A stretch of DNA of 64,000 bases from a virus: positions 3,617 to 67,616 of IMG/VR virus record IMGVR_UViG_3300027801_000019. The stretch is one strand, 5' to 3'. Below are positions 6,080 through 51,386 of this stretch, one piece after another. The notes under the pieces were generated by a model. The model saw only the letters and a list, made by a program, of their open reading frames with translations, was not told where the DNA came from and did no database searches. Position 1 is the stretch's first letter; every line of letters begins with the position of its first letter. The translations under genes were made by a program, and so were the position numbers.

Positions 6080-9000
6080 CTATGCTGCTCTCAATGGCAC
6101 ACCTTGCTCTATTAACTGTCGGGTCACATTGCTACTAATCTCACTTATTGCTTCATCCATTGTCAAGCCAAAGAAGTTATTTGTCATCAATAACTCAACA
6201 TTAGAATACAAGTTTTCAACACCTTTATTTACGACTTGCTTCATCATTTCACCGCTCATGTATTGAGAACGACCACCGAAAAATAATTCTTCTCGTGCGT
6301 TGGCGAAAGAGCGCATTTTTTCTTCGGCTTCGGTAAATCCATCACCTATACCTTCACCGGCTTCAAGTATTCTTGGATTCATATACTCAAAATCTTTTCC
6401 AGCTGCAATCGCTCCTTGACCAATGCTTATAAGATGAGTTATTGCCTCTTGAGTTAGGTCGGTAATTGCTATGCTACCATCAGCAATACCAGCAACAACA
6501 TCATCTATTCCTTCTTCCATATCACCGAAAATTGGGTCATAACTTTCTGTGACCCATAGCTCCTGCCCCTTTGAACCAATTACCTGCTTTTTTACTTGTC
6601 GCTCAAGTTCTTTTACCCACCCTTTCTTAAAGTCAACTGCTTGCATTTCTCCTAAATCACCAGCATTAATATGTTTAGCCAAGGTTTCAATTCCACCCTG
6701 AGTATACATGGATTCCTCAGATAAAGCCAGTCCAGTCATAACAATCTTATTTTGTCTTAGTGCTTCGTTATATGTCGTAAGTTCATTTATATTGTTTTGC
6801 CAATGGTGAAACATAGGGTCATCTTGAGCATATAGGTCTCGATGCGATTCGTATTCTGCTAATAGTGTATTTGAGTATGCTAAGTGGTCGTTCATTTGGG
6901 CAAGATTCATATTAGTTAAGTCAACTTCTGTTCCGAACTTATCTGCTAATGCTGCCGGAACTGCAAATACTTTTGCACTCTCTTCTGTTAATTCACCTAA
7001 TAAATCGCTTGTCATTCTTAAACTATCATTCATACCATCAACAACATCAGTCGCTTTGGTTGCATCAGCTGAAAAGTGTTCAACAGCCATAGCAATTCCC
7101 ATTACCACTAAAGTTATCGCTAATAGTGGAAGACAAGCTGTGACGAAACCTATCATAGCAATTTTTGCTCTTGAGGTTGCTGCAGCAAGACCGTCAAAAG
7201 AAAAAGCGGCTACAGTATTTGTTGTAGCCACAGTTTGCCCTGAAACTGCTGTTGTCAACATTTGTTGAGACATAGCAGCCATCTGGATAGTAGCGGGAAT
7301 CATAGATAGGGTCATAAGAATAATTTGCACCCTTGCAGACTTTTCTTCATCCATACCAAGAACACCACCGAAAACACCCATAGCGATAGATGCCATACCT
7401 GCGGCCATGCTTACTTGTCCTAACCTACCAGTCATCCTTGACATAGCAGCATCTGTGCTTTTCATACCAAAGAGATTTCTTCTCGTAGCCATAGCCTGCT
7501 CGGTTTGTTGCATTAAGGCAGAATCCCTTACCAGCTCAAGGTTATTTTCTGCAAGCGTAAGGGCGACTAAATCATTTATTTCTTGTTCGTGTAAAAGGTG
7601 CATCTCATCACGCAAAATACCTAACTGAATCATTTGATTGATTTTTTCAGTATCCATAGCATTAATTCTATCTTTGGCAGCAGCCTCACCCTCTAAAACA
7701 AGTCTTGCCTGTGCGTCTTGCTCAAGTAATCTTTGGCCTAATGTTAATTCTTTGACTTTGGTTGAAATCTCTTCTTGTTGCATACCACTTAGCAAACCTG
7801 CTGCAGCCACTTTCGCTTTGAGCCTCTCCCTCTCGACTTCTTCAACGAACTCGTTGAGTAATGCTTCTTCTCGTAATCTTACTAAAGTTTTTCGCCCTTG
7901 TCTTTCCCGATAGTTACCTACTGCCTGTTGTGCTGTGTTGTGTTGCTTCTGTTTCTGTGTGTAGGCTTCAAATGTCGCCATTTCTGCTTGTGCTAAAGCA
8001 TTAGCAATTTCAGTTCTTCTCATTAGGATGGTCAAGCCATTTAACTCCACACGATTCACTTCTTGCGCCCCTATAAGTTTCATTCTTTGCGTTCCAGTTA
8101 ATCGCTCGGCTAATGCTGCTTCCGCTCGTGATTTATTTAATTTTGAGTTAATAATGTCCTCTTCAGTTCGGTGCATATATAATAATTCAGTTCTAAGTGC
8201 TTTGTCTCTTTCTAATAGTGATAATGCCTCAATTTCATGGCCTGCTATCCTTAGTTTCATTTCCTCTTGTTGTTTGTATTTCATTGTTATTGCTTGGGTT
8301 AAGTGCATATGGTTTTCCATAATTTCGGTTCGAGCAATCTCAGTTAATATACCGAGATTTGTTATTTTAGCATACTCGCCTGCACTTTTTAATGTGACCC
8401 CACTGAATATTCCTTGCTTCCTATATTCATCGGTTCTCATAATTTCTTCGCCGTTGATAGCCCGTAAAACTGTTCTATGGGTTTCCATAGAGATATTAAC
8501 GGATTTCATCTGCATATACATTTGCATAGTGCTACCCATTATAGTCATCCACTGTTGCATCTCTAATACGAATGTTGACATACCTTTGAATACAGCACTA
8601 TCACCAAATGATGCAAGACCCTTTGTGAACTTGGTTTGAACATTGGTTGCAGCTGTCATAGATGGAAGAAGTTTTTGTCCTAAAATTGCTTGGTAGTGTC
8701 CTAACTCGGCTTGTGCCTCTTTATATGCTGTTGAGTTATCATCAAGAACACGATTCAATTCTTCAGTCGCTGAAGATTGGTCGTCAATTGCCATTTTAGC
8801 AAGTTCGGACATACGGTTATGGTTCTGAATCAATTTAACGAATCTTACATAGTGGTCGTTTCCTGCAACCGTTTGAACGATGTTCTGTTGTTGTTCTGCG
8901 CTTAATTGATGCCATACCTCACCTAAGTCTTCAACGATAGCAGAAAGTGGTCTTAATGCACCCGTAGTCACATCATGAGTTGCTATACCATATTCTGCTA

Positions 9001-9790
9001 ATAGGTCATTATTTTTCTGCATATTAGAACCGAGACGGCCATAAATCATACGCAAAGCCCTACCCGCCTTACCCTGTTCTTCTCCGGCCTCAATTAGTGT
9101 TGCAGACATAGCGGCCATATATGCTATTGATTCACCGGTTCTGTGTGCCTGTGATGCGAATTGATTCATAACGAAAGTCAATTGCTTCATGTTGGAAGCG
9201 GAATTGTTTTCAACGGTATTTAATTGGTCGAGAACTTCAATGGTATTAGCATAAACAGTATTTTGTTGATTTTGGGCATCCAAGTGTTTAAATTGTACTT
9301 CAGTTAAATCACCATACATAAACTTGGTTTGTTGTTGCAAGTTAATCATACGGGTCATGGCTTGTTCAGTTCCCATACCGGAAATCAAAGCAAATGTTTG
9401 ACCGAGCTTTGTTGCAGTCTCAACAGCCGCTTCACCAATCACCCCTGTTAATTGTGCCATCTTAGCACCAGCGGCGAGGGATTCTTCTGCGGTAAAACCA
9501 AAGGCTGCGCCTGTATCTATAATTCCTTCGGCAAGTGCCTTATTTTCTCCGGCAAACTTCTCGAACTCAATAGTGGCTGCAGAAAGAGCCATCGCTAATG
9601 GTGTAACTGATGAAGTTAATGCGGTGATTTGCTCACCTATACCGGCGATAGAGTCAAACATTTGACTCATAGAATCAAGGACAACAGCCTCAACAATAAG
9701 CATTTGCGCTTTAGAATCCGCTATCATACGGGAAGCATTGAATGTTCCGACTACATCAAAAAATACTCGAGGTGCGCCGGTCATTGCCAT
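6080..9790 (-). CDS. Tail tape measure protein
   Basis: 1236 aa, Ala/Met/Gln-rich helical; TP901-type core (MAAMSATLIEAGEEQGKAGRALRMI), hydrophobic segments; follows tail chaperones. Confidence 0.92.
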   Translation of the reverse strand: MAMTGAPRVFFDVVGTFNASRMIADSKAQMLIVEAVVLDSMSQMFDSIAGIGEQITALTSSVTPLAMALSAATIEFEKFAGENKALAEGIIDTGAAFGFTAEESLAAGAKMAQLTGVIGEAAVETATKLGQTFALISGMGTEQAMTRMINLQQQTKFMYGDLTEVQFKHLDAQNQQNTVYANTIEVLDQLNTVENNSASNMKQLTFVMNQFASQAHRTGESIAYMAAMSATLIEAGEEQGKAGRALRMIYGRLGSNMQKNNDLLAEYGIATHDVTTGALRPLSAIVEDLGEVWHQLSAEQQQNIVQTVAGNDHYVRFVKLIQNHNRMSELAKMAIDDQSSATEELNRVLDDNSTAYKEAQAELGHYQAILGQKLLPSMTAATNVQTKFTKGLASFGDSAVFKGMSTFVLEMQQWMTIMGSTMQMYMQMKSVNISMETHRTVLRAINGEEIMRTDEYRKQGIFSGVTLKSAGEYAKITNLGILTEIARTEIMENHMHLTQAITMKYKQQEEMKLRIAGHEIEALSLLERDKALRTELLYMHRTEEDIINSKLNKSRAEAALAERLTGTQRMKLIGAQEVNRVELNGLTILMRRTEIANALAQAEMATFEAYTQKQKQHNTAQQAVGNYRERQGRKTLVRLREEALLNEFVEEVERERLKAKVAAAGLLSGMQQEEISTKVKELTLGQRLLEQDAQARLVLEGEAAAKDRINAMDTEKINQMIQLGILRDEMHLLHEQEINDLVALTLAENNLELVRDSALMQQTEQAMATRRNLFGMKSTDAAMSRMTGRLGQVSMAAGMASIAMGVFGGVLGMDEEKSARVQIILMTLSMIPATIQMAAMSQQMLTTAVSGQTVATTNTVAAFSFDGLAAATSRAKIAMIGFVTACLPLLAITLVVMGIAMAVEHFSADATKATDVVDGMNDSLRMTSDLLGELTEESAKVFAVPAALADKFGTEVDLTNMNLAQMNDHLAYSNTLLAEYESHRDLYAQDDPMFHHWQNNINELTTYNEALRQNKIVMTGLALSEESMYTQGGIETLAKHINAGDLGEMQAVDFKKGWVKELERQVKKQVIGSKGQELWVTESYDPIFGDMEEGIDDVVAGIADGSIAITDLTQEAITHLISIGQGAIAAGKDFEYMNPRILEAGEGIGDGFTEAEEKMRSFANAREELFFGGRSQYMSGEMMKQVVNKGVENLYSNVELLMTNNFFGLTMDEAISEISSNVTRQLIEQGVPLRAA

Positions 9791-21191: not shown

Positions 21192-22220
21192 TTAAAAAGT
21201 TTTGTTGTATTCTTCAGAAGAATAGTAATTATTGTCGTGAACCCACCATATTTGGAGACATAATCTCAATCCGGTTGTTGGTTTAGTCAGGTTTTCAATG
21301 TGAACAAACTTGTTATCTCCCTGTTCAGCTGTTATGTTATACTTAGGCATACCATAATAGATACTTGTTCCATTGTTGTCTTTCAAATATATATCAACTT
21401 CAATTTGTTTAGTTTCACCACAACTCCAATCAGCATCCCATGACACCTGTAATGAAATAGTCTCGTTGGTTTCGTTAAACCAACTCTCGGTTACACTATA
21501 AAAGAATGCAGACCCGTTGCACTGTGGTTCAGGAGGATAGGAACAGGAGCCATCATCTTGTTCGGCCTCCGAGTCATAGTTTTCGGCATCTGGGTCAGTG
21601 CATCCCTCAATCGGTTCTGGCTCTGGTTCAGGCTCTGGTTGTGGCTCAGGCTCTGGTTCAGGCTGTGGTTCAGGTTCAGGTTCTGGCTCATCCCAATAGC
21701 ATGACCCATCCTCCCATGAAGCGTAGTCGTCGTAGTTATCGGCATCGGGATTCAAACAACCGCCGTATTCGTTGTTATAGTATTCATCAGGTGGTAAATC
21801 ATTAGTATTGAACATACCCATGTTTGACATACTACTTCCTGTCAAAAGTAAAAAAACAGGGATTATTATTATTGCTATTTTCTTAAGATTTACAACCTTT
21901 CTGCTAACAGAAGCAATTGCCCTATCAACAATGTCACCTTCAAGTGTTGTTTCAACAGTAACATTGGTTTTGTTATCGCCACCGTTAAGAACTGTGTTCT
22001 CTGAGACCTCGTTGTTGATTTGTTGAACGGTGGATATTAATTCAGCCGCTTCTTTTAATTGAGTAATTAAATCCTTTTCAAAATGATTGGATTCGTTGAG
22101 TATTCCATCGTCGCCTAAATCTTCTAAAACATCTGAGACGGTTCTGCCTGTTGCATCAGCAATGATTTTTGCTCGCTCGGCTAATTCATCAGACATACAT
22201 ATACCCTCATTGTTCTTCAT
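21192..22220 (-). CDS. Membrane-anchored protein with Pro-Glu linker and GCxDPxAxNY..DGSC repeats
   Basis: TM segment IAIIIIPVFLLL, two Cys repeats flanking (PE)n. Confidence 0.8.
   Translation of the reverse strand: MKNNEGICMSDELAERAKIIADATGRTVSDVLEDLGDDGILNESNHFEKDLITQLKEAAELISTVQQINNEVSENTVLNGGDNKTNVTVETTLEGDIVDRAIASVSRKVVNLKKIAIIIIPVFLLLTGSSMSNMGMFNTNDLPPDEYYNNEYGGCLNPDADNYDDYASWEDGSCYWDEPEPEPEPQPEPEPEPQPEPEPEPEPIEGCTDPDAENYDSEAEQDDGSCSYPPEPQCNGSAFFYSVTESWFNETNETISLQVSWDADWSCGETKQIEVDIYLKDNNGTSIYYGMPKYNITAEQGDNKFVHIENLTKPTTGLRLCLQIWWVHDNNYYSSEEYNKTF
21613..21689 (-). repeat. 6-bp degenerate tandem repeat encoding (PE/PQ)n
   Basis: ggttca/ggctct/ggttct units. Confidence 0.9.
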
Positions 22221-25763: not shown

Positions 25764-25927
25764 CAATAGGGGCTGGTATTGTTTGGTCTGTTGAAAGAAA
25801 GTGTCGGGAGTGCGGCTTTACAGCTGTATGCCGATATACTTCTCATAGAAAATGGTGTAAAAAATTAAGTAAAAGAGTATATTGTGGCACTATGAGGGTA
25901 GTGCGTTATCCGGAGGAAGAAGAATGA
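25760..25927 (+). CDS. 55-aa Cys-rich protein
   Basis: Hand-translated MTIGAGIVWSVERKCRECG..YCGTMRVVRYPEEEE; ATGA overlaps on both sides. Confidence 0.65.
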   Translation: MTIGAGIVWSVERKCRECGFTAVCRYTSHRKWCKKLSKRVYCGTMRVVRYPEEEE

Positions 25928-27396
25928 AAATAGGAGAAACTTTATCGTTAAAGAGAAGTAAGAAAGACCCCAAGTATTTTTATCAATGGCTTGGTTATTC
26001 ATGGGGTGAGCACATTGAAGATTGGATGAAACTTTACGGTGAAAGAGGAGATTCTATTGTTCATAGGGTTTGTATTATCGCACCACGAGACCACTCAAAA
26101 TCCACCACACTAAGGGTAGCAGTGCTTTGGTCTTGTCTATTTGAAAAGTGGCGCAACAAACCATTTACCACTTGGTTGTTTTCTGCAAGTAAAGACCTTG
26201 CTATGCGCCGATTAGAAGAAATTAGGGAGGATATGAAAAGGCATCCACAACTTCGTAGTTTAATTGACCCAAGAAGGGGTAATAAACACGCAATTCATTT
26301 TACAAACGGTTCTTGGATTAGAGCAACCGGTGTAGGGGCGGCTATTCGAGGTGAGCACCCAGCCCGTATTGTTTTTGACGATGTATTGGATGATATAGGC
26401 GACCAATCCCCAAATAACCTTAGACATTGGTTTAGGAAGAAAATCACCCCTATGTTATCCCCACAAACTTCAATTTTCGTAGTGGGAACACCTATGGCTA
26501 TGACTGACCTTTACCATACGGAGATGCTATCAAATGATGTTTGGAAAAGCACCATTACATCTGCAATCCCTAATTGGGAGGAACATAAGGCGGATAATAC
26601 AGTTAAGCCTATTGCACTTTGGGAGGCGGAAAGACCTATTGCCTTCCTAATGGAACAACGAGCCGCTATCGGTGAATTGGCATTTACCCAAGAATATTTA
26701 TGTAAGGTTGTTGATGATGAAGCTCAAGCATTCCGTAGGGAACACACTCGAGCGCATATGGACACTAATGATGTAATCCACTGGGATAACAAAGAGGAAG
26801 GTAAATATATGATAGGCTTTGACCCATCTCAAGGATTGGGGCAAGATTATACCGTTATGGTTGTCTTGCGCCAAGATGCACAAGGGTTTGTTCACTTTGT
26901 TAATATGTGGCGTAGGAATGACTTCGCACCGGATAAACAAGCCGAGATGTTAGGCGAGTGGTCTAAAAAATATAAAAGCCCTATCGCTGCAGAAGATGTT
27001 GGATTTCAAAGACTCTATGAATCCCTATTAGTGCAAAAGGGAATAACGGTTGATTATCGCCAAAGCAAGGTTTCAAATCGTGCATTAAAGCAGGCATTGA
27101 TGAATCGTCTTCGAGTTTGGTTCGAGCAAAAGAAAGTAATATTCCCCTATGGCGACGATGCAACTCGTAGGGTTGTAAATGTCATATTAGAAGAATTAGA
27201 CCACCATGTATGGAAGGAAGGGCTTATTACTGATGTGGGCAAGCATAATGATACGGTTATGGCATTTGCTCACGCAATAGACCAAATGACACATATTGAT
27301 TCTGGGAGATTGCCTATGGCTACAAGAAAAGTCTCAGGAACTTCATGGGGCGGCAATTCATCGGGTTCGGGAAGATTTGTTATTTTCGGCGATTAA
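25924..27396 (+). CDS. terL: Terminase large subunit
   Basis: Walker A APRDHSKST, Walker B IVFDD, VVGTP, nuclease IGFDP and HNDTVMA; start moved to MKIGETL. Confidence 0.93.
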   Translation: MKIGETLSLKRSKKDPKYFYQWLGYSWGEHIEDWMKLYGERGDSIVHRVCIIAPRDHSKSTTLRVAVLWSCLFEKWRNKPFTTWLFSASKDLAMRRLEEIREDMKRHPQLRSLIDPRRGNKHAIHFTNGSWIRATGVGAAIRGEHPARIVFDDVLDDIGDQSPNNLRHWFRKKITPMLSPQTSIFVVGTPMAMTDLYHTEMLSNDVWKSTITSAIPNWEEHKADNTVKPIALWEAERPIAFLMEQRAAIGELAFTQEYLCKVVDDEAQAFRREHTRAHMDTNDVIHWDNKEEGKYMIGFDPSQGLGQDYTVMVVLRQDAQGFVHFVNMWRRNDFAPDKQAEMLGEWSKKYKSPIAAEDVGFQRLYESLLVQKGITVDYRQSKVSNRALKQALMNRLRVWFEQKKVIFPYGDDATRRVVNVILEELDHHVWKEGLITDVGKHNDTVMAFAHAIDQMTHIDSGRLPMATRKVSGTSWGGNSSGSGRFVIFGD

Positions 27397-27741
27397 TATC
27401 TCAATATCCAAAGAGTCACACTCCGGACATTGAAACTCGTAATAAAGCGAGGAACTCTCTAATTCAAATACAGCCCCCGTTATTACCCACCTCTCTCCAT
27501 TATAATTGCATATTGAGCATTTCAACATGGCTAATGATAGACCATGAGCTTATTTAGAATATGTTACTTTTTGAAAAAATTAAAAAAAATTGAGCGAGGT
27601 GGTGGGCGTTCGAGATGGGCGTTATATTGGAGTTTTTGGTGCATCCTTTATAGGTGGGCATCACCACCATTCGCTATGGGCGAACCAAATTGGACACATA
27701 CTATGTGTGATGCGATTCGGATTTGTTCTATGGGTGATACC

Positions 27742-28272
27742 ATGATTGAAATGATATTGGTAATTATCGCACTTTTGAAAAGTGTCATAGTTACAAAAAC
27801 AATAGGAATAGTAGGTATAGCGGCAATTGTTGCTATGAATACGGTAAAAGGGAAAGAACCAATTAGAACGGACAAAGCATGGTATAAAATGCGTGTTTTG
27901 GACTATCTAAACGGTATAATGAACATCATGGATAATATCCATGCTAACGGGTGGACAAAGTATCAAACTATGACCATTGGCGTTCAATATGCAAAGGTTG
28001 AATTGGTATTGGTTAGGGCTATGTTGAAAGCCTATTTGGCTATGGCAAAGGTTCAAAATTGGACTTTAGCGGTTGATGTGTGCCCTAATACGGCATCATC
28101 ACCGGTGGCCAAACTAAACGCTATGATAGCAACATTGATTGATATGTCAATGACCGATGATGAAAAGAATGCTATGCTAATTAGTCAATTAGAAAAGCAA
28201 ATGGCAAAGGATGCAAAAGCATTGAAAGCATTGTTGGCAAAGGGCAAAGGTGGTGCGGGCAAAAAGGAATGA
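27742..28272 (+). CDS. Helical protein, 'KMRxxDY' paralog 1, with N-terminal hydrophobic segment
   Basis: TTTATA at 27647, GGTGA RBS before ATG 27742; start uncertain (27676 or 27835 possible). Confidence 0.65.
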   Translation: MIEMILVIIALLKSVIVTKTIGIVGIAAIVAMNTVKGKEPIRTDKAWYKMRVLDYLNGIMNIMDNIHANGWTKYQTMTIGVQYAKVELVLVRAMLKAYLAMAKVQNWTLAVDVCPNTASSPVAKLNAMIATLIDMSMTDDEKNAMLISQLEKQMAKDAKALKALLAKGKGGAGKKE

Positions 28273-28281
28273 TAGGTGACT

Positions 28282-28380
28282 ATCATACGGTGCAAATCCG
28301 TTAGAATGTGGTTAGGGTCGCACACCACCGCCAAAGTGCGACCACCTACGGGAAAGGGTAGGGCAAACGGAATGGTTTGC
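28282..28380 (+). ncRNA. Candidate structured RNA type A, copy 1
   Basis: ACGG-TGCAAAT-CCGT, GGTCGCAC/GTGCGACC, CCTAC/GTAGG and GCAAAC/GTTTGC hairpins. Confidence 0.45.
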
Positions 28381-28393
28381 ACACCCCCCGAAT

Positions 28394-28828
28394 ATGGATA
28401 ACCAAACCCAAACCAAACCCAAACCGACCACCACCATGAAAGCACTTTTCATGTTTGATGCACACTTTAGCATCAATAATGAAATGTTGGCAACCTATGA
28501 TATTGGCAACATACCATCACTAACCTTTGGATATACCAATGGTGATGATATAGAACCGGCGCAAATACACCGTATGGTTGCGTCTATTGGCCACCGATTA
28601 GCAAAGACGCAACAACCTACCACCGATGAAAACGGGGATGAATGCGACCAATGTATGACCCATCACATTGACGGGGAATTATGCAATCAATCATCATGCG
28701 ACCATGATTATGATATTTTAGAATCCATTGATGGATGGGTTTCATGTCAATGGTGTGGATTTGAAAGGGGATTGGATGCCGATGATTTTCATGTTGAATA
28801 TGACCCAACCGACAAAGACGAATATTGA
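28394..28828 (+). CDS. Acidic protein with Cys/His clusters
   Basis: CDQC, CDHDY, CQWCG; start may be 28436. Confidence 0.6.
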   Translation: MDNQTQTKPKPTTTMKALFMFDAHFSINNEMLATYDIGNIPSLTFGYTNGDDIEPAQIHRMVASIGHRLAKTQQPTTDENGDECDQCMTHHIDGELCNQSSCDHDYDILESIDGWVSCQWCGFERGLDADDFHVEYDPTDKDEY

Positions 28829-29118
28829 AAGGATTGATTGAAATGATACTACCTAACAAAACAAATGAAAGGCCGACCAAAGGGGGTGATATGATGGCTA
28901 TAACACAAATAAACATGGCGTGTTCACAATGTATTGACAAAGCGTTTAATTTAGGAAAAACCACAATGGTAAAAGATTTCTTGGATATTAACAATTGTAA
29001 TTTCATTGTTGGGCGACCAACCCACATGATAATAGATTATCCAACAATCTATCTATGTGACGAATGTTTAGTGGAATATAAAAGAACAATGGCTTTTTTC
29101 AAAGCGTATGTTGTTTGA
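28825..29118 (+). CDS. Zn-finger-like small protein
   Basis: CSQC..CDEC; likely start about 28891 after GGTGA. Confidence 0.6.
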   Translation: MKGLIEMILPNKTNERPTKGGDMMAITQINMACSQCIDKAFNLGKTTMVKDFLDINNCNFIVGRPTHMIIDYPTIYLCDECLVEYKRTMAFFKAYVV

Positions 29119-29140
29119 ATAAACACTACTAATTCAATAA

Positions 29141-29237
29141 TTCAAATATAGACATCAATGCGTTGATGTTAGGGTGTTACGCCACCCTTTCGCCCCTATC
29201 GGTTGTGCGCAATCGGTGGGGGCTACCCTTTTTTTTT
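29141..29237 (+). terminator. Three-hairpin 3' element with poly-T (RNA type B, copy 1)
   Basis: Hairpins at 29152-29169, 29171-29188 and 29192-29223, then T9. Confidence 0.65.
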
Positions 29238-29704
29238 GCTTTTTGCTTTTCTTTTTTTTGATGTAGTAAAACAATCATTACTATATCGGATGGGGTAAAG
29301 GATAATCCCTCGAAAAATATAACGAAAAACTGTGCAGTAAATCGTGCAGTATTTTCATTTCAACTTATGTTGGGATTGGTTCTGCCTTACGAAAAAAACA
29401 TTTGGAGAATGCTGCAGTCTCACAATAACCTGCAGTCTTATCAGTAACACCGCCCTGCTCTCTCTTCTTTGGCATAGGGTAAGGCTTTCCCTTATTATTA
29501 AAAAAAGTCGGATTTTGTCACCCAGAAGTTCCAGGTATATAAAGGCTGGCCTCCACCATCCTCGCTTGGTAGTGCCGATTTGGGTCGCCGAAAAGTCCAG
29601 GTATATATACCCTTTCTCCGGTTGTTCAGAAAAGTATCACGAACATACTATATACTATGGGCGTATATTTATATTTAGGGGCAAAGACCCCACCGGTGAT
29701 AAAT

Positions 29705-30043
29705 ATGTCCGATGAAAAAGTAGCCAAAAAAACGATGAATGAAACCCTACGAATGCGTATTCGGGATGTAAATAATTTAGTTACAAACCTAATGCAATTT
29801 GTGGACACGCTAATGACCAAAAACGAATGGGTCGCCGTATTAGGCCTATTAGTAGCAAACAAAGCCCTATATGATGCCGTAGCACACCGATTTGGTGCAA
29901 AAGTGGATATAGCGCAAAAGATTGACGAATTAATTGAATCCGTCACATTGCTAACCATGTCAAAAGCCGCTATCAAAGCAAAGGCAAAGGCCGAATTGAA
30001 CGAACAAATCAAAGCACTAAAGGATGCACTAAAGGAACTATGA
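29705..30043 (+). CDS. Helical protein, paralog 2
   Basis: LRMRIRDV motif; TATA at about 29668, GGTGA RBS. Confidence 0.75.
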   Translation: MSDEKVAKKTMNETLRMRIRDVNNLVTNLMQFVDTLMTKNEWVAVLGLLVANKALYDAVAHRFGAKVDIAQKIDELIESVTLLTMSKAAIKAKAKAELNEQIKALKDALKEL

Positions 30044-30052
30044 TTTAGGATA

Positions 30053-30162
30053 ATCATTCGGTGCAAATCCGGCAACGACCCGATGGGGTGGCGGGCGAAT
30101 AATGTCCACCCCAACCGTAGGCCGGTGGCCGTCATAGGGAAATGGCGGTCATCGGTTTTTTT
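30053..30162 (+). ncRNA. Candidate structured RNA type A, copy 2, ending in terminator-like hairpin
   Basis: ATCATTCGGTGCAAATCCG (18/19 to copy 1), GGGGTGG/CCACCCC stem, long GU-containing hairpin and T-run. Confidence 0.45.
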
Positions 30163-30352
30163 ATTTGTCATATTTAACATAGGCTTTTTTAAGCCAACGA
30201 TACCTGACCTCCCTCGAAAAAAATAAACTGCTTATCGTGCAGTATCTCGGCATACCTTAAAACCAGTTTTGTTAAAAAAGTAACTTCATGGCACACCCCC
30301 TAAGTTTGTATTCGCATTCACATTCATTCTAATCACCTAACTTTATTCAATA

Positions 30353-30589
30353 TTATGAGATTGCTACACCGTTTTCATCAAAGTCATAGGCGCACAAGTC
30401 GTCACATACCCAACAATACAATTCGTATGCGTTAAGTCGTTCTAATTCGGACAAGTCTATTACCATATAATCCATGTTTCCATCCCACGAGAACGCCGTC
30501 ATCATTGACACCGTATCTTTTCCGCAAGTTTTACATAACCATATAAACTTATATTCTATTTCTTTCAATCCCAAGTTTTTATTTTCCAT
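30353..30589 (-). CDS. Zn-finger-like small protein (cassette gene)
   Basis: CKTC..CWVC; own TATA element. Confidence 0.7.
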   Translation of the reverse strand: MENKNLGLKEIEYKFIWLCKTCGKDTVSMMTAFSWDGNMDYMVIDLSELERLNAYELYCWVCDDLCAYDFDENGVAIS

Positions 30590-30862
30590 TTTTAATCATT
30601 CCTACCCCGTCGGGGCTACATACCCATACACGCCACACCCTATAATGGTAGCGATTCGGCAAGTTTTACGAGATAGCAACCTATTTATCTTAGAGCCGCC
30701 CCCGAGTTAGGGGTGGGGATTAGTCTCGAAAAAAACAAAATGTCTTCTGTGCAGTTTATAAGTTCGGTGACTTACGGGGAGTTTTGAATAAAAAAGGAGG
30801 TGGTATGGTTGTGAATACATTTATAGTATTATTTAAGTTCATACAATCACCTAAGTTTTTAT

Positions 30863-31180
30863 TTAACGGGGTAAAGGATAATCATAAAGAGTTGCACCAA
30901 CAATTGCGTCATATGCGTAGCACAAATTGTTATTGACAATCCAAAACTCAGACACCAAATCAATCATAATAAAATGGTCGTCGGGTTGGTTTGGTATATC
31001 AAACTCAGGCACTATCCAATAACCCATCGGTATGCACATACCATCAAAGTTTGTTCCTAAGTTCATCATCATGCAAAACTCATCATCATATCCACGAATT
31101 GCCATAGCAATTTGACCGTAGGGCATGATAATTAAGCCGCTTTTTTCATCGTTGTTTTCGTATATTTCTAAGTTTTTCAT
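30863..31180 (-). CDS. Acidic hypothetical protein (cassette gene)
   Basis: 105 aa; upstream region nearly duplicates that of 30353-30589. Confidence 0.7.
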   Translation of the reverse strand: MKNLEIYENNDEKSGLIIMPYGQIAMAIRGYDDEFCMMMNLGTNFDGMCIPMGYWIVPEFDIPNQPDDHFIMIDLVSEFWIVNNNLCYAYDAIVGATLYDYPLPR

Positions 31181-31476
31181 TTTCGGTTTTCCCCCCTTTT
31201 GGGTTAGTTACCCATACACGCCGTAGCATATAATGGTTCGGATTGGGTGAGTTTTACGAGCTTTGGTGGTATTAGTTAAGCCGCCCCCCAAGATAAGGGG
31301 ATGGGATAAGATTACTCGAAAACAAAACTCGCTAACTCGTGCAGTATATTTTTCCTTCAAAAAACGCATTCGCCTGATGTGTTGGTTGTCATGTTGTTGT
31401 CAAAAAGTGACCTTATGGTGGGGGAATCCCACCGGATTGATATTGGAAGAACCTTTTCATATTACCACCTATTTAT

Positions 31477-32085
31477 TCAAAGACTTGGTGGTGCGTTATA
31501 TTCCCAATCGCATGACCTACAAAACACTAACAATCCGTCTTCGGAGTCGTCATAGTTAAAGTAATCTTCGCCAGCCGCACCATTGATAACTTCTTCACAC
31601 ATATTACAAAGAATGATTATGCTTTTTTTCCTTCCATCCTTTTCATTTTTATAGGTGTGTCCAACAAGTTTGTGTGATTTACAACGGTGGTCGTAGTAGC
31701 CCGCTTCCCCAGTCACATATGAATGTTCTAATGTGTATTCGGAAATAACTTCATCACGATGAACCATTTCATTGCACACAAAGCACTTCACAGTGATACC
31801 ATGTCGCTTTTCAAAGTCGGCCTTCATTAGTGCTTTGCCCTTTTGTTGTCGGTCAAATACCTTGTATGCCCGTAGTAGTATTTGCATACGGACAATTTCT
31901 TGTTCGTAGTATTGCTTTAATACCACCATTGATACACCAATAGGTATTTTGCTTTCCAGCGCACTTATTAATTCGTCGTTTGTGGTTGGGTATGTTAGAT
32001 TATTGCTAACACACACCAACTTCAGAAACGCCATTTCCTTTTCATTCAATTTTATATTCTTCAATTGTTTATTTTCGTTATTCAT
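31477..32085 (-). CDS. Zn-finger-like protein (cassette gene)
   Basis: CFVC, CKSH, CNMC, CRSC; AGGAGGT RBS. Confidence 0.75.
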   Translation of the reverse strand: MNNENKQLKNIKLNEKEMAFLKLVCVSNNLTYPTTNDELISALESKIPIGVSMVVLKQYYEQEIVRMQILLRAYKVFDRQQKGKALMKADFEKRHGITVKCFVCNEMVHRDEVISEYTLEHSYVTGEAGYYDHRCKSHKLVGHTYKNEKDGRKKSIIILCNMCEEVINGAAGEDYFNYDDSEDGLLVFCRSCDWEYNAPPSL

Positions 32086-32424
32086 GTTTTTTACCTCCTT
32101 TTTAGTCGCATCGGGCTTTGTTATTGTCGCCCGCTACAACCACTGCTGGGGGTATGTGGGTATAAAGGTTTATATTGGGCGTCTTAGTGGAGCTTTGGTG
32201 GTATTATATGAGGTGCGCCTCCGGCCTCAAGTTTTTAGGATAAGGTCTCGAAAAAAAACTATGACAAGTCGTGCAGTATATTTCACTGTCAGAAACTCGA
32301 AAGACGGCGAATCCTTAGCATATGTAAAAAAGCGATAAAAAAGTTAAATCCAATAGGTGAACTTAATGTGGGGAATATCCCACCGATTCAAACATTATCT
32401 TAATAGTCATGGTATCACTTCAGT

Positions 32425-32952
32425 TCAATATGACCTATCGTGGGTTGGCGGGAAGTGTGTGTAGTCATTTGTAGTGACTAAATCCATACCATACCTAAAG
32501 TGTAATTCCGCCTCAACTGCATCTAATACACCATTACCAAACATACCCTTTAGAATGCCCGTTAAAACTTCAGGTATTCCGCCGCCGATGTGATGCGCTA
32601 ATCCAACTTCGCAGATTAACTTTATTTCACAATCGGTTGTGTGGCGTGGGTCAAAGTTAACTTGTAGGTTGTGTGCCACTAATTGTAGCGTTACAACTTC
32701 CCTGTTTGACATAATCCACACTTCAGGTATTTGCGGGGTTAAACATTCCCGACATTTGTAGGCTTGCGGAGTAGGTTGTTCCGATACATCTTCAGATTCC
32801 CCGTCACCACATAACTTACCGCAGTAGTCGCATTCACGACACCCGCAACCATGTATTTCACCAAATTGCCTTATGTGCCATTCGTAATGTTCCTTTGATA
32901 GAACATGACCGCAACCACATACAATTTCATTCGTTTTTTTATCTTCTTTCAT
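32425..32952 (-). CDS. Zn-finger-like protein (cassette gene)
   Basis: CGCGH, CGCRECDYC, CREC; AGGAGG RBS. Confidence 0.75.
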   Translation of the reverse strand: MKEDKKTNEIVCGCGHVLSKEHYEWHIRQFGEIHGCGCRECDYCGKLCGDGESEDVSEQPTPQAYKCRECLTPQIPEVWIMSNREVVTLQLVAHNLQVNFDPRHTTDCEIKLICEVGLAHHIGGGIPEVLTGILKGMFGNGVLDAVEAELHFRYGMDLVTTNDYTHFPPTHDRSY

Positions 32953-33254
32953 TATTTTTGCCTCCTGTTTTTTTGGATGGCCGCCGTTGCGACCATGTTA
33001 GGCTGTGGGGGTAGTAGCATATATAATGTTCTATTAGGCAAGTATAGCGAGCTAAACGCACTTTATTCATCTTGCCGCCTCGTCGAGTTAGGCAAGTTTA
33101 AAGCCTACGAAAAAACTTCACAAATAATCGTGCAGTTTATCCGCTTGTGTGACGACTGTTAAGTTTCATGCAATGCTACGCCTTACAAAACATGAAGGCA
33201 GTTAGGGATGCCAGCCCGAGCTGATGGTGGGTGATACAAGTTACCATCAATTGA

Positions 33255-33569
33255 TTAAGCACCGTAGGATGCGCAGTCGCAACCACATAATTCAGTCATA
33301 TACAACCATTCAGGTGTAGCAATTTCAGAAGGGTCATGCCCACAAAGACAATGTGAGAATGAGCCATCTTTGTTGTAGGAAGTGACGGTGTAATTACCAG
33401 CGGCCATTTTTGCATTGAGCTTTTTAATATCAGCCAAGACTTTTACAACACGAACACATGGTTTGCAGTAAGCAAGCATTGTGAAGGTTGGGTGGCCTAC
33501 ATAAGGTATATCCACCATTTCATCGGAAGGAAACCATTCGGAGCAGCCGCAGCACATATCAGGATTCAA
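33255..33569 (-). CDS. Cys-rich small protein
   Basis: CCGC..CKPC..CLCGH. Confidence 0.6.
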   Translation of the reverse strand: MNPDMCCGCSEWFPSDEMVDIPYVGHPTFTMLAYCKPCVRVVKVLADIKKLNAKMAAGNYTVTSYNKDGSFSHCLCGHDPSEIATPEWLYMTELCGCDCASYGA

Positions 33570-34282
33570 GATAAATCAACCCCATAATTAACAGGTTTTG
33601 GTGAGCAAAGGTCGCCGGTGGCAGAAAGACAAGGCCCTTCAGAATAATAACCACAGCGAAGACAAATTGGTTTAGCAAGATGTATTTTGGTATAACAGTC
33701 TAAACAATATTTTGAGTCGTTATTACCGAGCATCATTGTCTTTTCCGAGAACCATTCATCGCAGTGAAAGCATTCATCCTTTGGTGAGCCCCATACATCG
33801 GCCATAAGAATCTTTGGTTCACACCAGATTCGGTGTGCGCCGCACAGGTGGATTTCATATTTTAAGACAGTTCTATGACTATCAGTTTGGGCAAAGAATG
33901 CGAAGTCCATAAGAATGCAGCCGCAGTCAAGTGTTTGTTGTTTGCCTAACTTTTGAAGATTGTATTTGGCGACAGTTGCAGCGTGGTCATCCCAGCATTC
34001 GGTGTCATCATGAGGGATGCAATCGTCATCATAATAGTCGGCGTAGCAAGGTGAGCAAAGGAGTTCATTGCCACCGTCGCACCCAGCCACATTGATGTAT
34101 TGAGTAATTGGTCTATCGCAAGTATCGCAATTGCCGATTATGTTCCCCAAGTTGGTGGGGATTCGAGAATCAGAGGTCAATCGCAAGTCGGGCATCGGGG
34201 GTGTGTCGGGTCGTTCCGCCATAACAAGACATCGGGGGCATTGCATATATACCCTGCGTATGGCCGAAGTGGGGTGCATCAC
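33566..34282 (-). CDS. Multi-Zn-finger-like protein
   Basis: Six or more CxxC pairs; start uncertain. Confidence 0.6.
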   Translation of the reverse strand: MMHPTSAIRRVYMQCPRCLVMAERPDTPPMPDLRLTSDSRIPTNLGNIIGNCDTCDRPITQYINVAGCDGGNELLCSPCYADYYDDDCIPHDDTECWDDHAATVAKYNLQKLGKQQTLDCGCILMDFAFFAQTDSHRTVLKYEIHLCGAHRIWCEPKILMADVWGSPKDECFHCDEWFSEKTMMLGNNDSKYCLDCYTKIHLAKPICLRCGYYSEGPCLSATGDLCSPKPVNYGVDLS

Positions 34283-34628
34283 GATTGAGTTTTAGCGAGT
34301 TAAAGGGATATACGAGTGTGTATCACATTCCACCTCATCGGATGGTTGGGGGTGGGGGGAATAAATGTCTCGAAAACTATTTTTTAAATATCGCACAGTT
34401 TAATGCAGTCTCTATCTTGGCCGCCGCCTCAAGTTTTTTATTTGAGTTGAGCTCGAAAAAAACTTAAGTAAAATCGTGCAGTTAAGTAAAACGAAAATAC
34501 GCCATTTAGCTCGTGCCTCGATGATGATGCACCGCACTTGCCTATACCGGCATCTATATATAGTAGTGATGCGTAAGACTATCATGGGCAAAGTGAAGAC
34601 CAGCCCTACAAAAAGGAGGCAAAAAATA

Positions 34629-43180: not shown

Positions 43181-43495
43181 ATGGGAGATGTGGAATACAA
43201 AAAACTTACAAAATTAGGGAATGCTTATTCAATTAAAATCTTACAAAACATAGAAAACTTAATGGTTGAGCTTAATGTGAATGTTCCTGAAAATGGTCTT
43301 ACTACTCGTGATATAGCAAGTCTATTAACACAAAAAAGAGTAAGTCACGATGGAAAGAGGATAATAAATAATTATGGTCTTCCATCTATACACAAACTTG
43401 CTATGTTATTAAAAAGAGATGTAAGATTTATGGCATACAAGCGAACAGTGAAAGCAACGACTCAATGGAGTTTGGTTTTTAATGAAGAGGAATAA
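43181..43495 (+). CDS. Winged-helix-like DNA-binding protein
   Basis: GLTTRDIASLL..IHKLAMLLKRD.RF..QW pattern. Confidence 0.55.
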   Translation: MGDVEYKKLTKLGNAYSIKILQNIENLMVELNVNVPENGLTTRDIASLLTQKRVSHDGKRIINNYGLPSIHKLAMLLKRDVRFMAYKRTVKATTQWSLVFNEEE

Positions 43496-51337: not shown

Positions 51338-51386
51338 TAAGAGTGCAAATCGTTATGTTTATATAGTCTAAAGCATAGGGCAGTAT

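Follow-up and report, generated by a model that had tools for sequence, protein, structure and literature searches.

We analysed 64 kb (hereafter the window) of the IMG/VR virus record IMGVR_UViG_3300027801_000019 (67,616 bases, rated 100% complete), in which two genes downstream of the large terminase gene TerL, named P1 and P2 (paralogs 1 and 2), are each followed by a copy of the same 19-nucleotide (nt) hairpin-forming motif. The 19-mer, ATCAT(A/T)CGGTGCAAATCCG, was found in exactly two copies, both on the plus strand, which match at 18 of the 19 positions and differ by a single A/T exchange. An earlier note, made from the letters of this DNA, had reported these copies at 28282 and 30053, and the observation is confirmed: no third copy was present in the window with up to two mismatches, at least two motif matches were obtained in 0 of 100 dinucleotide shuffles, and the 13-nt core (at most one mismatch) occurs only twice in the whole 67,616-base record. 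The motif starts 9 nt past the TGA stop codon in both copies (TGA at 28270-28272 and 30041-30043), in line with the distance of about 10 nt given in the note.

The stem CGG-TGCAAAT-CCG with its 7-nt loop was also found as described, and a fourth pair can be added to it (A-T in copy 1, T-G in copy 2). The sequence likeness of the two copies ends with this core hairpin, hereafter H1. A GC-rich stem then follows that is particular to each copy, GGTCGCAC/GTGCGACC at 28316-28343 in copy 1 and GGGGTGG/CCACCCC within 30085-30112 in copy 2. The further hairpins mentioned in the note are likewise present, with pairing held through compensatory changes.

Sequence comparison indicates that the paralogy of P1 and P2 is real but distant. 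The two proteins share about 23% identity and were not significantly matched by BLASTP alone (E = 0.18), but jackhmmer, run over the 2958 open reading frames (ORFs) of the loci compared, joined them from either seed (E 4.9e-29 and 7.4e-44). Moreover, the residues M, R, D, and N of a shared RMRxxD..N motif were invariant in an alignment of 11 family members, so that the designation of the two genes as paralogs is borne out. The same gene pair was detected by jackhmmer 3' of TerL in the related loci L011 and L013, and L010 carries the first member, its contig ending soon after. The family is rare: a search of 1.84 billion representative proteins gave 23 clusters at E <= 0.001. Neither protein matched anything in Pfam or PHROGs, and the ESM Atlas gave no usable match for them. 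The AlphaFold2 model of P2 is a four-helix bundle, with a mean pLDDT of 77.8.

Structure and conservation of the two 3' elements

Relatives were sought among 80 TerL-anchored viral loci. The motif was carried by the near-identical contigs L003 and L006 and by L007 (TerL 92% identical), and was absent from L008-L016 (TerL 75-85%) and from all other loci, as determined by a two-mismatch scan and a covariance model. A scan of metagenome contigs with the P2 alignment yielded two loci: L085, in which P2 is 95% identical and copy 2 is complete, and L086, which contains P1 with copy 1 and a P2 that is 81% identical, its copy 2 being cut by the contig end. The region of H1 and of the stem preceding it (H0) is thereby represented by five distinct sequences. 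A further variant was observed at a contig end in the DNA run X9 (UCGG-UGAAAGG-CCGA, with U-A as the fourth pair).

Other searches added no relative. No match was found by blastn against phage GenBank records, by a search for P2 in viral contigs, or by a search of the same contigs for the X9 variant 19-mer (0 matches); the family-alignment search in viral contigs returned no contigs beyond those already known, and an exact 20-mer of the second hairpin (H2) was found there only in the known near-identical contigs. A covariance model of H0 and H1 (R1), run on 82 sources (741 kb), returned only its own six training sequences, L002 (23.7 bits), and eight matches with E > 0.5. L002 was rejected as a relative and is probably a chance match: it is an unrelated phage, with the match in a helicase/primase context, a fold z-score of -0.66, and no Rfam match, and the 17-base pattern behind it is expected a few times in a collection of that size.

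The hairpins of both elements are listed in Table 1. The presence of ATCA within the repeat, as well as the equal spacing from the stop codons, is accounted for by H0, in which AUCA pairs with the UGAU of the stop codon. As an alternative to H0, CAU can pair with a downstream AUG, which lengthens H1. Complementarity of this type recurs in L086, between its unrelated 5' flank AACC-CAU and the invariant AUG-U-GGUU.

Table 1. Features of the two 3' elements, their genes, and compared contigs. Positions refer to the window unless a contig is named.
Feature	Position	Strand	Sequence or structure	Basis
P1 (paralog 1), longest ORF, 242 aa	27544..28272	+		ORF list, translation, family membership
H0, copy 1	28270..28285	+	TGATAG-GTGA-CTATCA, includes stop codon	folds
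Motif copy 1	28282-28300	+	ATCATACGGTGCAAATCCG	
H1, copy 1 (core hairpin)	28287..28301	+	ACGG-TGCAAAT-CCGT	motif, folds, pairing counts
H2, copy 1	28316..28343	+	8-bp stem GGTCGCAC/GTGCGACC, 12-nt loop ACCACCGCCAAA	alignment, RNAalifold
H3/H4, copy 1	28349..28390	+	outer CGGG/CCCG, inner GCAAAC/GTTTGC at 28363-28380	folds, alignment
P2 (paralog 2), 128 aa	29657..30043	+		family membership, codon-position substitutions
H0, copy 2	30041..30056	+	TGATT-TAGGAT-AATCA, includes stop codon	folds, pairing counts, L085
Motif copy 2	30053-30071	+	ATCATTCGGTGCAAATCCG	
H1, copy 2	30058..30072	+	TCGG-TGCAAAT-CCGG	motif, pairing counts, L085
H2, copy 2	30085..30112	+	GGGGT...ACCCC, inner GGGC/GTCC	folds; G-U to G-C in L085
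P2 intrinsic terminator	30119..30165	+	17-pair stem, AGGGAA loop (30119-30158), then seven T	terminator search
Shared paralog flanks of L011 (TerL 82%), ~70 nt	6724-6810 and 8279-8370 (L011)			flank alignment, folds
tRNA-like gene of unrelated viral contigs	9198-9281 (L113); 7289-7372 (L142)	-		Rfam tRNA

The terminator of P2 begins 76 nt past the P2 stop codon. In copy 1, H3/H4 ends 3 nt ahead of the ATG (28394) of the next ORF, and no terminator-like site was called in the 121-nt gap before this same-strand ORF. Among the hairpins of the two elements, a GC-rich stem followed by a U-tract was found only at 30119-30158, and neither H1 nor any hairpin of copy 1 has this arrangement. With the P2 stop codon on one side and a strong intrinsic terminator on the other, copy 2 must belong to the 3' untranslated region (3'UTR) of P2, provided that P2 is transcribed at all. 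Both copies would be expected to be co-transcribed with their genes, given this position of copy 2 and that of copy 1 in the gap between two same-strand ORFs. The sole RNA library among the 20 runs listed holds 0.05 of the words, with a single specific piece, a 151-nt contig at 28102-28252, inside P1; its other six pieces fall on low-complexity sequence (28855-28872 and 29229-29260). Contigs of the runs were read as showing presence only, and uncovered parts were not taken as absence.

Across the five distinct sequences, 97.7% of the cells of H0 and H1 pair, a value reached by 10 of 500 shuffles, with slid controls at 26-49%. The fourth pair of H1 is A-U, G-U, or U-G across these sequences, and pair 5 of H0 changes from A-U in copy 1 to U-A in copy 2. 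On copy 1, RNAalifold identified 5 out of 39 pairs in which both partners have changed; most belong to the inner stem of H4, where GCAAAC/GUUUGC (window) and GCCAAU/AUUGGC (L086) differ in a compensatory manner; in L007, the CGGG/CCCG frame is kept but encloses another hairpin, CCGCAU/AUGCGG. The copy-2 stems of the window and L085 differ by four substitutions, all of which preserve pairing (G-U to G-C, U-G to C-G, U-A to A-U); the terminator stem has one compensatory U-A to A-U change and one U-G to C-G change. The folding energies were only mildly better than those of shuffled sequences, both for copy 1 (z = -2.46; 2 of 200 shuffles as good) and for copy 2 (z = -2.24; 5 of 200). The plus strand of copy 2 folds at -48.7 kcal/mol versus -37.1 kcal/mol for the minus strand, and the structure is strand-specific because of its G-U pairs.

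Conservation was measured as identity in 30-nt bins against L086 and L007. The bins at 28286-28345 were 87-100% identical to both relatives, with identity declining again downstream. In the P1 coding sequence, identity to L086 was 10-60% over the last ~120 nt; against L007 it was 50-63% up to about 28225, then 80-90% over the last ~45 nt. The columns 28306-28354 are invariant across three lineages, including the 12-nt H2 loop. Similarly, copy 2 shows no change from L086 in the first 37 nt past the P2 stop codon. The distance from the stop codon was less constant: in copy 1 of L086, the CGG lies 13 nt from the stop codon, not 15, and H0 is not formed. The placement about 10 nt after the stop codons, as proposed in the earlier note, thus holds for both copies in the window but is not a fixed distance in this relative.

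Paired flanks and comparison with known RNA families

The two 3' flanks of each genome were aligned locally, and each alignment was compared with 300 shuffles. The flanks of P1 and P2 in the window scored 33 (shuffle maximum 22; 0/300), and those of L086 scored 29 (0/300). The two flanks of L011 scored 50 over 70 nt (shuffle maximum 25; 0/300). Each L011 flank contains a small hairpin, AUAUUG-UGCG-CAAUAU or AUAUUA-UGCG-UAAUAU, which differ by one compensatory change from G:C to A:T, followed in each case by a G-rich terminator. These flanks are a second, different paired-flank module. Eight flank comparisons were also made across lineages, of which six scored like shuffles and two gave borderline values (2/300 and 6/300), the latter probably due to the G-rich terminator stems. 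The 3' flanks are therefore alike within a genome and unlike between lineages, next to genes whose proteins are only ~23-30% identical, which argues for selection by something common to both copies. We read this common agent as a putative trans-acting factor, with a DNA-level process as the main rival.

The earlier note had proposed that H1 fits the T-loop module of tRNA-like RNAs. A T-loop is a pentaloop closed by a U1-A5 reverse-Hoogsteen pair, and occurs in the tRNA T-arm and also in RNase P, stem I of the T-box, and the L1 stalk of rRNA, as described in PMC4810234. U1 and A5 were present in the H1 loop, UG(C/U)AAAU, in all five distinct sequences. The residues U1, G2, A4, and A5 are fixed, and those that vary (C to U at position 3 in L007; C to A at position 3 and AU to GG at positions 6 and 7 in the X9 contig end) occupy the positions left free by this T-loop rule. 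As in T-loops described there, the 7-nt loop is closed by a G-C pair, with U and A at residues 1 and 5 and a variable residue 3; H1 differs in having G at residue 2, a 4-bp stem, no evident partner loop or intercalating base, and no tRNA-like context. UGCAA thus conforms to the minimal T-loop rule (U1...A5), which is a matter of sequence compatibility, not of membership.

In the T-arm of tRNAs, a 5-bp stem carries T54-Psi55-C56, residue 2 of the loop being U or pseudouridine. H1 has a 4-bp stem, G at residue 2 throughout, and C, U, or A at residue 3, and is not a tRNA T-arm. Accordingly, the T-loop proposal stands at its weakest level, that of U1 and A5, and does not extend to residue 2, stem length, or a partner element. 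The Infernal/Rfam search suggested in the note gave no family on either element. Indeed, nothing reached the gathering thresholds across the window with the 4227 models of Rfam 15, and the eight weak matches at E <= 10 in 28200-30300 (E 0.19-8.7) overlapped neither element and included no tRNA-clan model. ARAGORN called no tRNA gene in the window. The interpretation given in the note is supported in part: the hairpin is real, better conserved than its surroundings, and tied to two paralogous genes. Nothing tRNA-like was detected by these searches, and the sole link found to tRNA concerns an anticodon arm, not a T-arm.

This link was obtained with the relaxed pattern CATNCGGTGNAAATCCG, which occurs at 70 loci in viral contigs, about the number expected by chance; most lie inside long ORFs, and about 18 of the 70 belong to one gut-phage coding family. 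An Rfam scan of 7 of the 11 non-coding-looking matches revealed nothing relevant. Two contigs, L113 and L142, carry CATACGGTGCAAATCCGTT within an Rfam tRNA match (RF00005; 42.7 and 36.1 bits, gathering score 29). The minimum free energy (MFE) fold of this gene is a class-II cloverleaf with a long variable arm, in which ACGG-UGCAAAU-CCGU forms the anticodon arm, with a 4-bp stem and a loop that would have G at position 33. The H1 hairpin is identical there, as are the CAU before it and the UU after it, and the gene is likewise placed between an ORF and a GC-rich hairpin; there, however, the hairpin is part of a complete cloverleaf, as its anticodon arm, whereas no acceptor, D, or T arm is present around H1 in the phage. 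ARAGORN called no tRNA in L113 or L142, and the two contigs have no protein in common with this phage among the loci compared. The match may be due to chance and is a lead only; if real, the resemblance suggested by the sequences would be to an anticodon arm, not to a T-arm. In 185,579 species genomes, the exact 19-mer gave four matches, again about the chance number, three of them in named gut taxa and none within an ARAGORN-called tRNA gene.

Coding details, genome setting, and other repeats

The true start of P1 is probably the ATG at 27730, as suggested by the conservation of ATGGGTGATACC in L086, and the protein would then probably consist of an N-terminal hydrophobic helix and the helical family domain. 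P2 probably begins at a conserved ATG at 29705 (MSDEK...). The P2 coding sequence differs from that of L086 at 44 of 339 nt (12, 11, and 21 by codon position), and this third-position excess marks P2 as coding on the plus strand. A 184-aa ORF on the minus strand (29626-30180) is antisense to P2 and to the entire copy-2 element; it is probably a by-product, judging from the substitution pattern and family conservation, which favour the plus-strand gene.

Upstream of P2, GAA(A)AGT(T/C)CCAGGTATATA(A/T)A was observed in two plus-strand copies (29521-29548 and 29590-29612). These repeats are within a 540-nt region in which most bins are 93-100% identical to L085 and L086. Two small hypervariable ORFs of 144 and 97 aa, the shorter with CxxC pairs, lie between the motif copies at 28394-29118. 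Between about 28640 and 29120, the window is only 0-50% identical to L086, L085, and L007, each relative having different zinc-finger-like ORFs.

Based on Pfam and PHROG scans, the genome is that of a tailed phage, with tape-measure, minor-tail, and portal-like genes on the minus strand (3-24044). The plus strand then carries an exonuclease-like gene, TerL (25882-27396), and small ORFs. A minus-strand gene block (30353-34282) and a long plus-strand block are also present, the latter encoding a clamp loader, a Sak4-like annealing protein, a methyltransferase, an HNH endonuclease, and a DNA polymerase. Neither these scans nor ARAGORN revealed an integrase, RNA polymerase, or tRNA gene in the window. 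The DNA runs that contain the stretch are labelled as marine or seawater metagenomes.

Several other repeated or structured elements were noted. A 16-pair hairpin (27398-27436) starts 2 nt past the TerL stop codon; owing to its G-U pairs, it folds best on the minus strand, and it is retained in L086 with a single loop change (TGTGACT to TGCGACT). The repeat CTCGAAAAA(A)-N13-20-TCGTGCAGT(AT) occurs at seven plus-strand sites (29310-29350, 30213-30243, 30725-30755, 31315-31345, 32247-32277, 33106-33136, and 34452-34482), being present in every intergenic gap of 29.3-34.5 kb. Its orientation is constant, although most genes of this region are on the minus strand, and it also appears 3' of the P2 terminators in L011 and L013. 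It is a promoter- or terminator-like regulatory repeat of unassigned type. The repeat family (A/G)TATGTTTATATAC was observed on the plus strand at 43495, 47100, 51340, 53750, 59760, 61112, and 63427, directly 5' of plus-strand genes (for example, 35 nt ahead of the DNA polymerase ORF) and often with TGTCAAT about 7 nt upstream; it looks like the phage's own promoter consensus for the replication block. A likeness of GTGCAAATC(C)GTTA to the copy at 51340 of this promoter-like repeat (D3) was judged coincidental. Finally, tandem 12/18-nt repeats GGTTCTGGCTCTGGTTCAGGC are found at 21613-21684, inside a 342-aa ORF of the structural block (21192-22220, minus strand), where the sole Pfam match is a low-complexity, procyclin-like model.

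Interpretation of the element and rival explanations

The element is most likely a lineage-restricted, structured RNA module of the sense strand, with a core hairpin that would be recognised by its sequence. It matches no curated family but is of a familiar kind, that of phage intercistronic and 3'UTR hairpin elements; by the tests made, H1 does not behave as a tRNA mimic, nor is it coding. With a confidence that stops somewhat short of even, we propose that the H1 module controls the 3'-end fate of both paralog mRNAs via one factor. H1 would serve as a sequence-specific recognition hairpin for a single putative trans-acting factor, which may be a phage or host protein or another RNA, and through which the two mRNAs would share their stability, their 3'-end processing, or passage through the downstream hairpins.

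The logic is comparable to that of boxB in lambdoid nut sites, a pair of identical hairpins specific to each phage. As with boxB of nutL and nutR, one small hairpin with an identical loop, specific to a phage lineage and different in relatives, is present in two copies per genome, of which one lies just past a gene stop codon and upstream of terminators; boxB acts in the RNA, as H1 would. BoxB has a 5-nt GNRA-like loop and an adjacent boxA, is located downstream of early promoters, and requires an arginine-rich N protein. H1, in contrast, has a 7-nt loop and follows a terminase-proximal gene pair. The definition of a nut site does not fit it: PHROG and Pfam scans of 67 window ORFs revealed no antiterminator family, while boxA was not specifically searched for. 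Intrinsic terminators with accessory hairpins also offer a parallel, as a textbook terminator follows copy 2 and a small hairpin precedes the terminator at both paralogs of L011; H1 differs in having no U-tract, and copy 1 has no terminator-like hairpin before the next ORF.

Several observations weigh against control of the two mRNAs through one trans-acting factor. Only five distinct sequences from one narrow lineage are available, and related sequences may outscore shuffles even where no structure exists. No variation was seen in the three G-C pairs of H1, which are hence uninformative on the stem, and the invariance of stem and loop sequence fits a DNA site equally well. In copy 1, the strand bias of the folding energy is small or absent, and in copy 2 the single-sequence MFE folds favour a competing pairing (UCGG...CCGA with UGC/GCA) over H1. 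H0 and the 9-nt spacing are lost in copy 1 of L086, relatives at 82-85% TerL identity are entirely without the motif, and the two flanks of L013 are not significantly alike (score 17; 29/300 shuffles). Moreover, the 151-nt RNA contig stops 30 nt short of the motif and could be DNA carry-over, and the P2 model, a plain four-helix bundle, had no Foldseek match in PDB or BFVD at E <= 0.001.

Among the alternatives, a DNA-level element, bound by a DNA-binding protein of the phage or host or serving as a short hot-spot of recombination like the PeSLs of T4-like phages, is unlikely but has to be weighed seriously. Where the motif begins on its 5' side, identity to L086 rises abruptly from 10% (bin 28250-28279) to 80-100%, the ORFs between the copies are hypervariable, and the genome is rich in other repeated intergenic motifs and encodes the Sak4-like annealing protein. 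PeSLs are composite terminator/promoter repeats whose modules are exchanged, and are described as points of genetic exchange in PMC4122927. The resemblance lies in short, repeated intergenic stem-loops beside variable small ORFs, with a break in homology at the repeat edge. However, PeSLs occur in many copies with an early promoter, and a cassette of this type was not found here: there are two copies, no promoter-like part such as a -10 element follows the motif, and the hypervariable block has its boundaries (~28640 and 29120-29240) away from the motif copies. The G-T and T-G versions of the fourth H1 pair would pair only in single-stranded form on the plus strand, the downstream stems have undergone compensatory changes, and no read or contig joining the two repeats was found in four runs, a weak point since contigs show presence only. 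A separate small RNA, cut from the 3'UTR or made as its own transcript and pairing in trans through the H1 or H2 loop, is considered improbable. The strong terminator at the end of the copy-2 module is the usual anatomy of 3'UTR-derived small RNAs, and the 12-nt H2 loop of copy 1 is invariant across three lineages; nevertheless, neither element has a called promoter-like site immediately 5' of it, a search of the window for stretches complementary to the H1 and H2 loops turned up only 7- to 10-mers at chance level, the copies share nothing beyond H1, which is odd for one seed, and the single RNA library gave no read support. Still less probable is a functionless relic, an undecayed remnant of the 3' flank from the ancestral gene duplication. 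The restriction to two copies in one narrow lineage, whose sister lineages do without them, would suit a relic, but no other stretch is as well conserved between these lineages, in which the flanking coding sequence differs by 40-90%, and 18 identical positions out of 19 cannot be put down to neutral survival, because the paralogs have diverged to ~23% protein identity.

The suggestion that H1 is derived from or mimics a tRNA hairpin, as the relic or functional copy of a T-loop-like or anticodon-like arm that engages a tRNA-binding factor, for instance as a decoy or as a signal for processing or modification, is quite unlikely. It would agree with the loop residues U1 and A5 of the T-loop pentaloop (PMC4810234), with the fixed U1, G2, A4, and A5 among variable residues 3, 6, and 7, and with the anticodon arm of L113 and L142. 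It is opposed by the absence of ARAGORN tRNAs in the window, L113, or L142 and of Rfam tRNA matches at E <= 10 on the elements, by the lack of an acceptor-, D-, or T-arm arrangement around H1, and by the chance-level numbers of relaxed-pattern loci and exact 19-mer matches, L113 and L142 sharing no protein with the phage. The G at residue 2 departs from tRNA if H1 is taken as a T-loop and, were H1 an anticodon loop, would fall at position 33. In tRNA anticodon loops, this position is U33. A more specific version, in which H1 is a portable tRNA-arm module, serving as an anticodon arm in L113 and L142 and as a detached tag on the two phage mRNA 3' ends, is a long shot. One host or phage factor would then be engaged in both settings through the H1 loop, with a tRNA-modifying enzyme, a tRNA-cleaving defence nuclease, or a ribosome-associated factor as candidates, the last of these being met as the ribosome stops at the UGA 15 nt upstream; phage mRNAs would, if this is true, bear a tRNA-arm decoy or recruitment signal. 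Translation of the motif (I-I-R-C-K-S), by stop read-through, recoding, or a small ORF on either strand, has practically no probability. Both copies are in frame with the upstream ORF, their A/T difference would be synonymous (ATA/ATT), as would three of the four codon changes between the window and L007. However, copy 1 has an in-frame TGA followed by TAG, the peptides after the motif are unrelated between the copies, and L086 keeps neither the frame nor the peptide of the longest minus-strand ORF across copy 1. Read-through was ruled out by this double stop and by the 2-nt change of spacing in L086, where the frame is shifted because the stop-to-CGG distance is 13 nt instead of 15.

If a common factor does act on both 3' ends through H1, a small, unannotated cis-RNA element would tie two fast-evolving paralogs to a common regulator. 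The element is confined to a few near-relatives, and its value is local for now. Flanks that are alike within a genome and different between lineages, as in the window and L011, are nonetheless what would be expected of co-evolving RNA-protein recognition pairs, which are useful as orthogonal regulatory parts. Nearly all genes of this uncultured marine phage group lack an assigned function, and the 15-nt hairpin together with the invariant 28-nt hairpin would offer a handle on the function of the terminase-adjacent gene pair.

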